Positions 43,367-63,626 of a DNA stretch of 64,000 nt are shown here, piece after piece. The position numbers and the translations under genes were made by a program. Every line of letters starts with the position of its first letter. Within the stretch, counting starts at the first letter, position 1. The stretch is from Actinomycetota bacterium (GTDB taxonomy: Bacteria; Actinomycetota; Actinomycetes; S36-B12; UBA5976): contig JBEEND010000001.1 of the NCBI GenBank assembly GCA_041192345.1, positions 10,915 to 74,914 of the forward strand, in the 5' to 3' direction. Under the pieces are notes generated by a model. That model made no database searches, was not told where the DNA came from, and saw only the letters and a program-made list of their open reading frames with translations.

Positions 43367-43582
43367 GTGGCAAGCAAATGTCGTTTTTGTGGAAAAAGCC
43401 TGCAGCCACCTTCGATCCGAAGAAATCCAAACTGGGGTGTTACCCAGTGGGAAAACGATACATATTGCAAAGGGTGTCTTGATCCAGAACTTCCAACTTG
43501 TCCTTTTTGTTTGAAACCGATCAGTGACTATGCAACAAATTGTTCGTATTGCGGTAGTGACTTGTTTGATGTGTCTTTTTAG
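43367..43582 (+). CDS. small double zinc-ribbon protein
   Basis: 71 aa with four Cys pairs: CRFC, CKGC, CPFC, CSYC. GTG start 6 nt after the preceding stop. Confidence 0.5.
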   Translation: MASKCRFCGKSLQPPSIRRNPNWGVTQWENDTYCKGCLDPELPTCPFCLKPISDYATNCSYCGSDLFDVSF

Positions 43583-43617
43583 AAACACTTATCATCGCAA
43601 TAAACAGCATAAAAGAA

Positions 43618-44007
43618 TCAATCAGCAAACTTCACAGCTGTCCCGCACAGAAATACAGTATTCGAATTATTGTTATTGGTTTCACTGCTTATCGTTAGTG
43701 CTACTACCCCATCAGCACCCATTCCCGCTGCATTGCGTGATAAGTCTGCACGAGCCTTAACAAAAGAGTCTCGAGTCATAGAGGAATTCGTTACTCTCAT
43801 CATTACTGTGCCTGTGCCTATCACAACGCCCAAGACTTCCGAGATTTGTTTTCCTGCAACTTCCTGAGAGGTGACAATAAACAATTTCTCAGCGGATGGG
43901 TCTCCCTTTATCTGCTCTGTCCATTGACTTCCATCCCAATAACGCAAATACGAGACATCTGAAGGATCGGAGTACCAGCCTGGATCTGGATTTGCCATAC
44001 CGCTCAC
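43618..44007 (-). CDS. DUF2510 (N-terminal) fused to a YbjQ/UPF0145-like domain
   Basis: PGWYSDPSD..LRYWDGSQWT is the DUF2510 signature. The remainder (FIVTSQEVAGKQISEVLGVVIG...GADGVVAL) resembles YbjQ_1. The likely ATG is at 43998. Confidence 0.65.
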   Translation of the reverse strand: MSGMANPDPGWYSDPSDVSYLRYWDGSQWTEQIKGDPSAEKLFIVTSQEVAGKQISEVLGVVIGTGTVMMRVTNSSMTRDSFVKARADLSRNAAGMGADGVVALTISSETNNNNSNTVFLCGTAVKFAD

Positions 44008-44358
44008 CTATACGTTTGATGGCGGAGGCAATGCGCCTAAATCAACATCCGATCGATCATATTTATTGGGTCCAGGTGTGCCTTTGCTGCATAAAAAGAA
44101 TAAATTTACAAGTGGAATTAATAGGAACCATCCGCTTCGGTCAGTGTCGTGCATGCGTCTAATACCTGCAGTAGTCAACGGGATAAACAGCGCGAGTTGT
44201 GCAATGGTCAATACGACTGAGTTGCTACTCATGAAGCTCGCCACCCCAACTACTAAAATATAGAATAAGTAGAAGTACCAATATTCAGGACGAGTCGCCC
44301 TACCTTTTCCGTCAAAATACTTTGAGAAGCAAGTCTTTACAGCGGTTACAAAATTCAT
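44008..44358 (-). CDS. DUF805 family inner-membrane protein
   Basis: 116 aa. GRATRPEYWYFYLF and IRRMHDTDRSGWFLLIPLVNL are DUF805 hallmarks. Its stop abuts the next gene. Confidence 0.7.
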   Translation of the reverse strand: MNFVTAVKTCFSKYFDGKGRATRPEYWYFYLFYILVVGVASFMSSNSVVLTIAQLALFIPLTTAGIRRMHDTDRSGWFLLIPLVNLFFLCSKGTPGPNKYDRSDVDLGALPPPSNV

Positions 44359-44656
44359 GTCATTCTCCGATCAGGAATGTATGTACTGAGTGTTGCATAT
44401 ATGCAGTGATATTGCCATGATTTGGTGACCGAATAATCTGCGCAAAACGAAGTTAGTCACGGCTCTCTCATTACTGATAGAAAGCTGTTTAGTTATAACC
44501 TCGAAATTCAAAGCAATGCCGAAATTAATTGATAAATCATAAAACGAACGCTGACTTATTGTCATACTTCTGTGTCTTCGATCCCATATAGATGGTCAAA
44601 AAAGTGGGCAAAATCAAACCACCCCTTAGATTTCTTTAAAGGGGCAGCCGTATTTA

Positions 44657-44714
44657 GCGGAGACGAGAGGAGCCATCGTTCGCTCTATTCGAGCGAACTC
44701 TTCCCAAATCCTCA
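44657..44714 (-). repeat. tRNA-Ser(GCT) 3'-end-derived hairpin element, copy A1
   Basis: Minus strand: TGAGGATTTG GGAAG A GTTCGCTC-GAATA-GAGCGAAC GATGGCT CCTCTCGTCTCCGC. The last 14 nt are identical to the T-stem 3' strand, acceptor strand and discriminator of the adjacent tRNA. Confidence 0.85.
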
Positions 44715-44733
44715 CTCGTCTATTTCCGGACAG

Positions 44734-44763
44734 ACAAAAACCCCCACCCGAAAGGGTGAGGGC
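44734..44763 (-). terminator. terminator-like hairpin between elements A2 and A1
   Basis: Minus strand: GGCCCTCACCC-TTTC-GGGTGGGGG followed by TTTTTG. Confidence 0.6.
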
Positions 44764-44827
44764 CATAATGCATTCTGCAATTAGCCAATCCGATTGCAAG
44801 TGATCGCCAGCGATCACGCAATCCGTT

Positions 44828-44880
44828 GCGGAGACGAGAGGAACCGTCGCTTGCTGGCGCAAGCTCCTCCCAAATCCTCA
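44828..44880 (-). repeat. tRNA-Ser(GCT) 3'-end-derived hairpin element, copy A2
   Basis: Minus strand: TGAGGATTTG GGAGG A GCTTGC-GCCA-GCAAGC GACGGTT CCTCTCGTCTCCGC. It has the same 14-nt tRNA-identical 3' end. Confidence 0.85.
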
Positions 44881-44892
44881 AAGCTCTTCGCA

Positions 44893-44930
44893 ACAAAAAA
44901 GGCCCCACCCATCTGGGTGGAGCCATTTTT
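44893..44930 (-). terminator. rho-independent terminator of tRNA-Ser(GCT), bidirectional in shape
   Basis: Minus strand: GGCTCCACCC-AGAT-GGGTGGGGCC followed by TTTTTT. An A-run on the other side would also allow plus-strand termination. Confidence 0.8.
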
Positions 44931-45022
44931 TGGCGGAGACGAGAGGATTTGAACCTCCGAAGGATTTGACTCCTTACCTCATTAGCAGTGAGGCGCACTC
45001 GACCGGACTATGCGACGTCTCC
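44931..45022 (-). tRNA. tRNA-Ser (anticodon GCT), CCA encoded
   Basis: Hand-folded 92 nt: GGAGACG..CCTCA-CTGCTAA-TGAGG, long variable arm AAGGAGTCAAATCCTT, GGAGG-TTCAAAT-CCTCT, CGTCTCC-G-CCA. Confidence 0.9.
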
Positions 45023-45106
45023 TTGAACCTTTAGATTAACGGGTTTAAGGGGGATTGGCGAAAATCCGCGTTTGTGCCAATCGCACTAGCCCGCAAGGAT
45101 TGGGTC

Positions 45107-46124: not shown

Positions 46125-46190
46125 GGCGAGGGAGGGAACCGTCCAAATTTTCAAATCGATTCGATTTGAAAAATTTCTCCTCCCAAATCC
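46125..46190 (-). repeat. tRNA-Ser(TGA) 3'-end-derived hairpin element, copy B1
   Basis: Minus strand: GGATTTG GGAGG AG AAATTTTTCAAATC-GAATC-GATTTGAAAATTT GGACGGTT CCCTCCCTCGCC. The last 12 nt are identical to the T-stem 3' strand and acceptor strand of the adjacent tRNA-Ser(TGA). Confidence 0.85.
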
Positions 46191-46246
46191 GAGGGAGGGA
46201 CTCCACCGTTCTCGCTATTCGCGAGAACGTCTCCTCAAATCCCACC
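46190..46246 (-). repeat. tRNA-Ser(TGA) 3'-end-derived hairpin element, copy B2 (abuts B1)
   Basis: Minus strand: GGTGGGATTTG AGGAG AC GTTCTCGC-GAATA-GCGAGAAC GGTGGAGT CCCTCCCTCG. The truncated acceptor copy runs straight into the 5' motif of B1. Confidence 0.8.
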
Positions 46247-46257
46247 TCACACTGCAA

Positions 46258-46297
46258 GAAAAAAAGTAGGCCCCCGAATGGGGACCTACTTTTTTAC
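46258..46297 (-). terminator. rho-independent terminator of tRNA-Ser(TGA)
   Basis: Minus strand: GTAGGTCCCC-ATTC-GGGGGCCTAC followed by TTTTTTT. Confidence 0.8.
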
Positions 46298-46299
46298 TG

Positions 46300-46386
46300 C
46301 GGCGAGGGAGGGATTTGAACCCCCGGAGGCTTTTACACCTCAGACGCTTTCAAGGCGCCCGCATTCGGCCGCTCTGCCACCTCGCC
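46300..46386 (-). tRNA. tRNA-Ser (anticodon TGA), CCA not encoded
   Basis: Hand-folded 87 nt: GGCGAGG..GGCGC-CTTGAAA-GCGTC, long variable arm, GGGGG-TTCAAAT-CCCTC, CCTCGCC-G. Confidence 0.9.
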
Positions 46387-46499
46387 AAATCGTTTTAAAA
46401 ACGATCAAACGTAAGGTTACGCGAGAATTGAACTGTAGTGAAACCCGCTTAATGGCGTAGGCTTTTGCCACTAGCAATTCCCTAAAAGGAGCAAAACTG

Positions 46500-63289: not shown

Positions 63290-63361
63290 GCCACCTTAGC
63301 TCAGGGGTAGAGCAACGCACTCGTAATGCGTAGGCCCAGGGTTCAAATCCCTGAGGTGGCT
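63290..63361 (+). tRNA. tRNA-Thr (anticodon CGT), CCA not encoded
   Basis: Hand-folded 72 nt: GCCACCT-TA-GCTC..GAGC-A-ACGCA-CTCGTAA-TGCGT-AGGCC-CAGGG-TTCAAAT-CCCTG-AGGTGGC-T. Confidence 0.9.
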
Positions 63362-63626
63362 CTCTAAAAACGTTGCTATTGCTAGAGAGTATTACGTTTC
63401 GTGCGACGCAATGAATCGATTCAAACTCCCTGTGTACAGAATGCGTACATTCTATTCGGAAGTAATGTACCCCTCGCCCAAGAAACGTGTTACCTTTAGG
63501 CAACGTTTCTTAGATTCTTAACCTATGTCAACGTGGTAGAAGTTACCTCCTCGCTGATCTGTCTAGATTCATCATTGAGTCAAAATTTGGCTCGGTGGCT
63601 AACGATCTTTTTAGGAGGAACTCAGA

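Follow-up and report, generated by a model that had tools for sequence, protein, structure and literature searches.

Short hairpin elements that copy the 3' end of the adjacent tRNA gene in Actinomycetota: a candidate family of non-autonomous cassettes

The locus described here lies in a stretch of 64,000 nucleotides (nt) from an Actinomycetota bacterium (assembly GCA_041192345.1, contig JBEEND010000001.1, positions 10,915 to 74,914), referred to as the window, in which two tRNA-Ser genes are followed by small hairpin elements: A2 and A1 behind tRNA-Ser(GCT), and B1 and B2 behind tRNA-Ser(TGA). Table 1 collects the features, whose coordinates refer to the tRNA-sense (minus) strand unless marked +. 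On that strand the arrangement is tRNA, terminator (T), spacer (S), a 5' arm of the form N-GG-ATT-Y-G, the core GGAGGAG, a variable hairpin (H), the linker CGAC-GG-YT and a segment X2, which is a downstream copy of the 3' segment of the tRNA (X1). The hairpin element is designated E. X2 reproduces tRNA positions 60/61-73/76, comprising the 3' strand of the T-stem, the 3' strand of the acceptor stem and the discriminator.

Table 1. Features at the two tRNA-Ser genes of the window.
Feature	Position	Strand	Sequence and remarks
tRNA-Ser(GCT)	44931-45022	-	ARAGORN and Rfam; T-loop TTCAAAT; X1 = CCTCTCGTCTCCGC(CA)
Terminator hairpin T_a	44924-44901	-	Terminator scan; directly 3' of tRNA-Ser(GCT)
Spacer S_a	44900-44879	-	With T_a, left part of the proximal unit
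Element A2	44878-44842	-	5' arm AGG-ATTTG, core GGAGGAG, hairpin CTTGC-GCCA-GCAAG, linker CGACGGTT
X2 of A2	44841-44828	-	14-nt copy of tRNA positions 61-74
Long hairpin M1	44825-44790	-	CGGATTGCGTGATCGC / GCGATCACTTGCAATCGG (arms also as GTGATCGC/GCGATCAC); after X2, in the terminator's place
Terminator hairpin T_b	44764-44739	-	Terminator scan
Spacer S_b	44738-44713	-	With T_b, left part of the distal unit
Element A1	44712-44671	-	5' arm AGG-ATTTG, core GGAAGAG, hairpin TTCGCTC-GAATA-GAGCGAA, linker CGATGGCT
X2 of A1	44670-44657	-	14-nt copy of the tRNA 3' segment
Terminator-like hairpin	44643-44622	-	Terminator scan; 3' of the X2 of A1
tRNA-Ser(TGA)	46299-46386	-	T-loop TTCAAAT; X1 = CCCTCCCTCGCCGC
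Terminator hairpin	46259-46297	-	After tRNA-Ser(TGA); different in each related strain
Element B1	46244-46200	-	Type II variant; 5' arm GGG-ATTTGA, core GGAGAC, hairpin GTTCTCGC-GAATA-GCGAGAAC, linker GGTGGAGT
Truncated X copy of B1	46199-46190	-	CCCTCCCTCG, 10 nt; fused straight onto the 5' arm of B2
Element B2	46190-46137	-	GG-ATTTG, GGAGGAG, long A+T-rich hairpin, linker GGACGGTT; without a terminator or spacer of its own
Weak terminator call overlapping B2	46148-46172	+	A+T-rich hairpin
Weak terminator call overlapping B2	46198-46179	-	Stem between the B1 X copy and GGGAGG of B2
X2 of B2	46136-46125	-	CCCTCCCTCGCC, 12/14 nt

A preliminary description of this DNA had reported the order tRNA-Ser(GCT), terminator, A2, a GTGATCGC/GCGATCAC hairpin, a second terminator-like hairpin and A1, and all of these components are present at the reported places. 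The statement that both elements end in the 3' sequence of the tRNA is also exact: CCTCTCGTCTCCGC occurs three times, in the tRNA gene (44933-44946), in A2 (44828-44841) and in A1 (44657-44670), compared with a mean of 0.17 matches after shuffling and no shuffle out of 100 that reaches three. A1 and A2 share the start TGAGGATTTGGGA(G/A)GAG and form perfect hairpins, as had been described, and the A in the core of A1 makes a compensated pair with the T in its linker. B1 and B2 end in the 3' sequence of their own neighbour, tRNA-Ser(TGA) (CCCTCCCTCG and CCCTCCCTCGCC), so the tail of an element follows the adjacent tRNA. The terminator scan accepts T_a and T_b and does not call the hairpins of A1, A2 and B1, in which CGAYGGYT or GGTGGAGT follows instead of a run of T.

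Several parts of the window arrangement are seen again elsewhere (loci outside the window are cited by L numbers). The T_a-S_a module recurs in L040 and L095 and the T_b-S_b module in L001, L095 and L120, and M1 occurs in the relatives L120, L089, L095 and L100, either after other X copies or within an element as its hairpin. B1 has type II relatives in L021, L095 and L116. Its fusion to B2, in which X positions 61-70 are joined to GATTTGGG, is shared with L040 at tRNA-Ser(TGA) and with L049 at tRNA-Met; at recurrent junctions of this kind a newer unit adjoins an older one. The hairpin type of A2 is found beside four tRNA-Ser isoacceptors, and the arms of each copy match the local tRNA.

These copies belong to a family that is large, widespread in actinobacteria and apparently undescribed so far. 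A scan of a one-genome-per-species collection with the pattern GGATTTGGGARGAG N8-38 GAYGGYTCC yields at least 135 copies in at least 119 loci, the following counts being among the matches listed. Nearly all carriers are Actinomycetota and include Nanopelagicales, Intrasporangiaceae, Dermacoccaceae, Microbacteriaceae, Kineosporiaceae and Propionibacteriales, as well as Pseudonocardiales, Jatrophihabitans, Blastococcus, Ruania and Rarobacter; cultured representatives are Humibacillus xanthopallidus, Terrabacter, Dermacoccus abyssi, Rarobacter faecitabidus, Flexivirga caeni and Intrasporangium. A tRNA gene is located upstream on the same strand in 114 of the 135 copies, mostly 47-82 nt away, with Ser(CGA) (29 copies), Ser(GCT) (26), Pro (17), Ser(TGA) (13), Met (13), Leu (8), Ser(GGA) (6) and Ala (1) as hosts. 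A metagenome scan with GATTCGGGAGGAG...CGACGGYTCC yields about 59 copies in 54 loci. The preliminary description had connected the elements with tRNA-Ser genes, a restriction that does not hold for the family: Met, Pro, Leu, Ala, Gly, Arg and Tyr genes carry copies too, and the core is kept across many orders and at least 17 tRNA species.

In most loci without an upstream tRNA gene, the sequence immediately preceding is a partial tRNA, a 3' half that begins at the anticodon loop or at the T-arm; in L019, L029, L060, L087, L099 and L118 such halves adjoin the series of terminator, spacer and element. In L029 the listed copy, the one remaining of the 114, was assigned to an unrelated tRNA-Lys located 1,960 nt upstream; the tRNA that its tail matches is tRNA-Met, and a partial tRNA-Met half adjoins it. 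At these partial-half loci another island has integrated into the tRNA gene and pushed away the former 3' half, terminator and element included. Since it is displaced along with the old chromosomal 3' half, E is part of the resident flank and not of the islands.

Both arms of the element track the adjacent tRNA. The identity of X2 to the neighbouring gene is at least 96% at positions 61-68, 92% at position 69, about 86% at 70-72 and 70-78% at 73-74, and becomes random from position 77 on, forming a gradient from a fixed start. Co-variation of the 3' end with the neighbouring tRNA, proposed earlier as a check, is thus found across tRNA species. The 5' arm comprises the 7-8 nt just 5' of the hairpin foot and is antisense to tRNA positions 56-63. 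All the tRNAs of the first genome set have the T-loop TTCAAAT, while in L098 a tRNA-Ser(GGA) with TTCGAAT is followed by an element with ATTCG in place of ATTTG. The GATTCG variant retrieved in the metagenome scan has a TTCGAAT tRNA upstream in 42 of 43 tRNA-linked copies, at Pro, Ala, Ser, Gly, Leu, Arg and Tyr genes. A harvest anchored on X2 and ATTYG only gives 91 combinations of ATTTG with TTCAAAT and 19 of ATTCG with TTCGAAT, amounting to 110 concordant cases and none discordant. In addition, position 63 of the tRNA has a pairing partner in the base that precedes GG, which holds for 72% of copies (GC 45, AU 22, GU 3). From this pairing and the concordance between ATTYG and the T-loop it follows that N-GG-ATT-Y-G is the reverse complement of tRNA positions 56-63.

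The spacer, by contrast, shows no complementarity to the tRNA, with a local-alignment score of 4.09 for the own tRNA and 3.94 for controls and with pairing at 26-45% of positions. The absence of a 5' acceptor strand, reported for A1 and A2, is therefore general. A spacer that represents an inverted tRNA 3' end, able to build an acceptor/T-stem minihelix, is apparent in A1, L106, L090 and L112, and was rejected as a general feature on the basis of these scores and of the low complementarity past position 63.

The core folds on itself. Family-wide, the R of GGGARGAG covaries with the Y of CGAYGG (GC 126, AT 5, GT 3, AC 0), and the hairpin base covaries as well (GC 87, AU 6, CG 4, unpaired 0), with GGGACGAG...GAGGG and GGGACGAC...GGAGGG as compensating variants. 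The covariation was scored in 97 copies with the hairpin centre trimmed, for which two of the three hairpin-base pairs, but none of the platform pairs, had been required at harvest. Platform and hairpin base are paired in 97.4% of cases and five of the six pairs change on both sides; the score of 0.49 compares with 0.146 +/- 0.009 after shuffling (reached in none of 500 shuffles) and with at most 0.14 for slid partners. Between the covarying pairs, G.A and A.G oppositions are invariant and constitute a tandem G.A platform. The suspicion that the stems are under selection is thereby strengthened, and homologous copies and covariation, whose absence would have pointed to chance duplication debris, are clearly both present. 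The pairing partner differs from that described before, as GGAGG/GGAAG had been taken for the 5' strand of a T-stem paired with CCTCT. This pairing is seen in minimum-free-energy folds of tRNA-Ser copies, but it is impossible for the Pro, Met and Ser(CGA) copies, and the covariation backs the platform. Two further candidates were discarded, namely a kink-turn, since the covarying G5-C4' pair leaves no 3-nt bulge, and domain V of group II introns, with which the core has ACGGUUC in common, since the 5' strand is mismatched and Y7' is C in half of the copies.

The hairpin loops are mostly C-GNA-G triloops or C-GNNA-G, with any third base, a pattern that is typical of stable DNA hairpins more than of RNA GNRA loops. 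Among the non-Watson-Crick oppositions in the stems, G.A (49) outnumbers C.T/T.C (6) and G.T (20) outnumbers A.C (8), from which it follows that the fold belongs to the tRNA-sense strand only. For A2 (z = -2.3) and A1 (z = -1.5), single-sequence folding goes only modestly beyond shuffles; over the four window copies, z ranges between -1.5 and -5.0 for RNA folds and between -1.0 and -3.8 for DNA folds. The support for the structure is that of the family, with more than 190 further copies and their covariation, and not that of single folds.

The geometry of the units is uniform. They measure about 100 nt, of which E itself takes up 45-70 nt, and the interval between tRNA and element folds as a hairpin of 17-25 bp starting from the tRNA end, followed by a spacer whose length peaks at 12-13 nt. 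C56 and the end of the 5' arm are equidistant from the terminator centre (mode of the difference 0; at most 1 nt in 59 of 133), so that the region from T-loop to 5' arm makes up a degenerate palindrome with the terminator in its middle. In about 20 copies the identity continues into the terminator. These are either tandem units, identical over about 110 nt in L017, L045, L067 and L131, or 'young' loci (about 10), in which the same terminator reappears in shortened form after X2, its 3' arm being shorter in the distal copy than in the proximal one, before unique flank begins. Of 51 arrays, 47 have an intact copy next to the tRNA and 27 an intact most distal copy, and distal remnants are typically right halves that retain X, the linker and some of the hairpin (L020, L089, L095, L106, L128). 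Turnover is rapid, the newer copies being proximal and the older ones distal.

Some loci depart from this pattern. Downstream of tRNA-Leu(CAA), L175 contains a 29-nt unit, GACCGACGGGTC + CCACCGGGGCCACTAGA, in at least three consecutive tandem copies plus degenerate repeats; it corresponds to the linker and the tRNA 3' copy without a hairpin. In L119, downstream of tRNA-Ser(CGA), a 16-nt segment made up of the terminator end and the spacer (CTGCTTGATGACGACG) appears again about 130 nt downstream in the flank, which suggests a template-switch patch. Minimal units without a separate terminator are present in L090, L112, L124, L046 and L027, with a repeat period of 57-60 nt; their hairpin consists of the last 6 nt of the tRNA, a GNA triloop and the complement (e.g., CGCCGC-GAA-GCGGCG).

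Exact look-up of the SerRS protein leads to freshwater metagenome contigs that are 95-97% identical to the window, whereas the 297-residue open reading frame (ORF) between the two tRNAs gave no match in the same kind of search. The most similar genome loci are annotated as Nanopelagicales or as unclassified Actinomycetes metagenome-assembled genomes. Relatives at this level of identity have different, fewer or no elements at these tRNAs, in agreement with the strain polymorphism for which the preliminary description had proposed to look. At tRNA-Ser(GCT), L001 (95%) has another terminator, a new element with the hairpin GTGC-GCA-GCAC, then A1 and then a relocated M1; behind its tRNA-Ser(TGA) lies a further, distinct element, to which the 3' half of B2 alone is fused. 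In L002 and L003 (97%) no element follows tRNA-Ser(TGA), the order being tRNA, terminator and the end of the neighbouring gene. Between this terminator and the neighbour's stop codon, the opposite strand carries GGCGTCAGCGACGGTTCCC (L003 ~855-885; L002 ~5-35). This is the right half of an inverted element, and the sequence after it matches the tRNA 3' end poorly.

Terminator and spacer travel together as a module, against which the hairpin modules are exchanged, the breakpoints falling in the conserved linkers (window, L001, L021, L040, L095, L100, L120), and the terminator behind one and the same tRNA is different in each strain. The CCA end varies as well: it is encoded in the tRNA-Ser(GCT) gene of the window (44931-44933) and not in that of L001 (~3203), and its presence differs between tRNA and downstream copy in either direction (L039, L104, L120, L132). 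Downstream of the tRNA-Ser(GCT) array, L001 contains a different segment of 1.6 kb (L001:1300-2980, approximately window 43558-44657) bounded by a degenerate tRNA-Ser 3' half (GGCAAATCCTTCGCAGGCTCAAATGCCCTCGACATCGCCAG, ~L001:1830-1870, minus strand), which looks like a conventional integration scar beside the mini-cassettes. At the distal edge of the corresponding variable segment of the window (DUF2510/YbjQ and DUF805 ORFs, 43618-44358), the search for a degenerate tRNA half returned a chance-level match only.

The terminators after tRNA-Ser and tRNA-Leu genes of Intrasporangiaceae and Dermacoccaceae share the inner core GGACCC(C)GACACGCTTTTCGTCGGG(G)TCC, each with a unique and perfectly mirrored outer stem (L016, L019, L050, L080, L086, L087, L098, L115, L118). 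With this common inner core, they look like related structured modules and not like independent inventions.

ARAGORN and the Rfam tRNA model (RF00005) find only the three real tRNAs of the window and nothing at the elements even at E <= 10; over the loci, Rfam at the gathering threshold and at E <= 10 gives tRNAs and sub-threshold noise (sX4, Cyano-1). No promoter-like site was seen in a scan upstream of the window copies. Three patterns run against viral contigs gave 9, 0 and 0 matches and no real copy: the nine matches of GGATTTGGGARGAG...GAYGGYT, considered as phage attP sites, all lie in coding sequence with no tRNA nearby, and six of the nine contigs (L005-L013, GGATTTGGGARGAG...GATGGTT) share a stretch translating to FWIWEEF, which is presumably a terminase motif and a recurrent false positive of pattern scans. 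No Y1 HUH transposase or REP-associated tyrosine transposase (RAYT) was found in the searched parts of the window, and a full-text literature search for the motif and for descriptive terms returned nothing relevant. A homing CRISPR RNA of a CRISPR-associated transposon, a casposon-type target duplication and an integron-type crossover at GG/TT were likewise dismissed, as the defining genes or sites are lacking or the predicted junction is not observed.

The reading that we tentatively prefer, at somewhat less than an even chance, is that A1, A2, B1 and B2 are members of a family of non-autonomous cassettes added at the T-loop/T-stem junction of tRNA genes by a hairpin-plus-guide mechanism. E would be the right-end recognition site of a non-coding cassette of about 60-170 nt, composed of a tRNA 3' end copy, terminator, spacer and E, which would be inserted at T60/C61. 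As the cassette is proposed to supply its own tRNA 3' end and terminator, the tRNA would remain intact, and the former 3' end and terminator would be displaced downstream and decay there; repeated addition would generate stacked arrays such as those in the window. What is recognised would be the tRNA-sense strand in its folded form, most likely single-stranded DNA. ATTYG, which is complementary to CRAAT of the T-loop and covaries with it, would pair with it as a guide, as the guide of IS200/IS605 does with its target, and NGGA would pair with TCCN at both junctions. The putative enzyme would act in trans, and unequal recombination between X copies and palindrome deletion may then remodel the arrays. 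Of the options raised in the preliminary description, a miniature non-autonomous element fits best, in view of the ~100-nt units, the polymorphism, the arrays with decayed distal copies and the single hairpin type at four tRNA-Ser isoacceptors. The further-reaching proposal, possible but doubtful, is a previously unrecognised base-pair-programmed insertion system of Actinomycetota, in which a guide of 5-8 nt would read the T-loop, a T-to-C change would retarget it from TTCAAAT to TTCGAAT, and a putative trans-acting enzyme would install cassettes of about 100 nt that replace the tRNA 3' end and terminator.

Several observations weigh against the insertion of such cassettes. The enzyme was not found: Pfam detects no integrase among the window ORFs, as already noted in the preliminary description, and no recombinase or integrase recurs near the 119 loci listed, where the recurring ORF families are housekeeping. 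The searches revealed no autonomous copy, no excised circle junction and no clean pair of filled and empty alleles with identical flanks, since the 'empty' L002 and L003 differ in the flank too. The tRNA-Thr(CGT) gene of the window (63290-63362, +; T-arm GGGTTCAAATCCC) has no terminator-plus-element 3' of it, and being unoccupied it indicates that a suitable T-loop is insufficient for the presence of an element. All loci were found through the conserved motif, and the conservation of the core and 5' arm is therefore partly a product of ascertainment. The specificity of the fold for the sense strand is ambiguous, as it fits RNA equally well, and local duplication or re-priming would account for the 'young' loci no less than insertion does. 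Finally, IS200/IS605 elements carry similar hairpins at both ends, whereas T and H of these units share no sequence.

Of the alternatives, a cis-encoded RNA module in the tRNA 3' trailer is considered unlikely, yet several features speak in its favour. A read-through transcript would contain a segment that pairs with tRNA positions 56-63 (T-loop and 3' strand of the T-stem), then X2 and a second terminator, and could affect tRNA folding, processing or quality control, or serve as a decoy target of tRNA 3'-end-binding factors. Only the tRNA-sense strand supports the fold, which tolerates G.U, with Y7' being C or T about equally often opposite a constant G and G.T exceeding A.C in the stems; both arms stay matched to the neighbouring tRNA while S varies freely, and a hairpin or terminator follows each X copy. 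Moreover, Rfam sX4 comprises tRNA-Ser(CGA) and a 3' extension with a run of G that pairs back to the T-stem 3' strand, and it has been detected on Northern blots (PMC3300014). On the other hand, E starts about 12-13 nt beyond terminators of 17-25 bp, and with these upstream and no promoter-like site little transcript is expected there. The structured RNA suggested as an option in the preliminary description thus gains from the strand specificity of the fold and loses by the position of the elements. Copy number and content also vary among near-identical strains, some of which have no copy, which is unusual for a needed RNA, and arrays with decaying distal copies resemble accretion; the C-GNA-G/GNNA loops, too, are more like those of DNA hairpins.

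A still less probable explanation dispenses with dedicated machinery and invokes template switching driven by palindromes, re-copying of the tRNA 3' end primed by microhomology, and unequal recombination between short repeats, all at tRNA-terminator junctions under heavy transcription, the core being spread by copy-choice or gene conversion. The degenerate palindrome from C56 to the end of the 5' arm agrees with it, as do the 'young' loci, where the 3' arm of the proximal terminator is longer and perfectly mirrored compared with the distal copy, the X2 identity gradient from a fixed start, which is that of copying tracts of variable length, the short linker-plus-X tandem array of L175, the recurring 16-nt segment of L119 and the reassortment of T-S and H modules at conserved linkers. 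It leaves unexplained that one core (GGAGGAG, hairpin, CGACGGYT) is maintained with compensatory changes over many orders and at least 17 tRNA species, that the 5' arm is exactly complementary to the T-loop beside a non-complementary spacer, and that the distance to the tRNA is nearly constant. Very improbable, and largely refuted, is the option of ordinary attR-type scars, according to which integrase-encoding islands or prophages repeatedly entered the tRNA 3' end and were later deleted internally, E being a conserved P-arm next to the core. Integrative elements that target tRNA genes do leave the tRNA 3' end directly repeated and exchange the terminator behind it, as seen here, and real integrations have occurred at the same tRNAs (the partial halves from the anticodon loop in L019, L029, L060, L087 and L118, and the 1.6-kb segment of L001). 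Against such scars stand the missing integrase, near the loci and in the window alike, the three viral-contig scans without a real copy and the unit length (47-82 nt from tRNA end to E), which random internal deletions would not be expected to keep uniform. At the partial-half loci, E goes with the old chromosomal half and not with the island, and a strand-specific covarying hairpin with a left arm that tracks the T-loop does not have the properties of double-stranded arm sites. The remaining probability beyond these four readings is left for explanations not thought of.

In its logic the proposed cassette resembles most closely the IS200/IS605 and repetitive extragenic palindromic (REP) elements, with a likeness to attC arrays in form and to the target-binding loop of IS110 in topology. 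With the palindrome-associated transposable elements (PATEs) of IS200/IS605 and the REP-RAYT systems, both of which depend on Y1 HUH enzymes, it shares a small non-coding unit with a hairpin on one strand and no enzyme encoded in the unit, a candidate guide directly 5' of the hairpin foot (here ATTYG) that is complementary to the 4-5 nt (here CRAAT) which would precede the insertion or cleavage site, and a variable hairpin over a conserved base; the proposed active strand would here be the gene-sense strand. It differs in that the guide region of 7-8 nt spans the junction, the target is a tRNA T-loop and the unit carries the 3' end of the interrupted gene; no Y1 transposase was found in the searched window parts, and the family is restricted to Actinomycetota in the scans. 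The tRNA-targeting integrative elements, their att scars and cis-mobilizable elements (CIMEs) are alike in the direct repeats of the tRNA 3' end, the restoration of the tRNA by incoming DNA, the serial accretion and the strain-variable content. They would be expected to bring kb-sized variable inserts, while the units described here are gene-free, about 100 nt in size and spaced mostly 47-82 nt from the tRNA across taxa, with a block of identity of only 13-16 nt that begins exactly at position 60/61, a covarying hairpin end and a left arm antisense to the T-loop; a nearby integrase and a phage or plasmid copy were not found.

Integron attC arrays likewise consist of short cassettes with a folded single-strand site, conserved flanks, a variable hairpin and proximal addition. 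They differ from the present arrays, which lack RYYYAAC/GTTRRRY core sites, have GGATTYGGGAGGAG and CGACGGYT as conserved flanks, and start at tRNA genes with the T-arm in the role of attI and terminators instead of ORFs in the cassettes; neither IntI nor attI is found in the window. The bridge RNA or seekRNA of IS110/IS1111 has two short guides flanking a stem-loop, one per target strand, with an overlap of about 3 nt at the presumed crossover (CCN in E). E differs in having a single loop with no donor-binding loop, in its length of about 45-70 nt as opposed to 150-250 nt, and in housekeeping neighbours with no DEDD transposase, and its right 'guide' may be merely flanking target DNA. The resemblance to sX4 (RF02223) lies in the arrangement of a tRNA-Ser gene, a hairpin behind it and a G-rich stretch pairing with the 3' strand of the T-stem. 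The window gives sub-threshold matches of 36 bits at 46174-46394(-) and 19.4 bits at 44863-45035(-), against a gathering score of 70, and both are mostly driven by the tRNA. The sX4 model is proteobacterial and contains neither the GGAGGAG-hairpin-CGACGGYT core nor X2; in Xanthomonas the RNA measures 280-300 nt on Northern blots (PMC3300014). It is a lead for the trailer RNA and not evidence of membership, a possible proteobacterial analogue that indicates that such trailers can be transcribed.

If the cassette reading is correct, fast-turning mini-cassettes would be present at tRNA genes throughout a bacterial class, the streamlined freshwater acI lineage included, and would rewrite the tRNA 3' end, including the encoding of CCA, and the terminator. 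The rule would be simple, in that the guide beside the hairpin matches the T-loop, and it would point to a putative enzyme that reads folded single strands by base pairing, and so to a new class of guide-directed mobile element, possibly with a new recombinase or nuclease. TnpA, TnpB and the IS110 recombinases are base-pairing enzymes that have lately been turned into tools for genome engineering. If the element acts as RNA instead, a trailer antisense to the T-loop that also mimics the 3' strand of its own tRNA would represent a new type of tRNA-linked regulator.

The two tRNA-Ser genes are located among core actinobacterial genes, which in the window comprise serS, upp, a PnrA-like binding protein, DUF2510, DUF6069, trxB, murJ, cca, pknB, rodA and ssb. 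The cumulative GC skew has its minimum near 41-42 kb of the window, with no replication genes there, and the G+C content of the window is about 47%.

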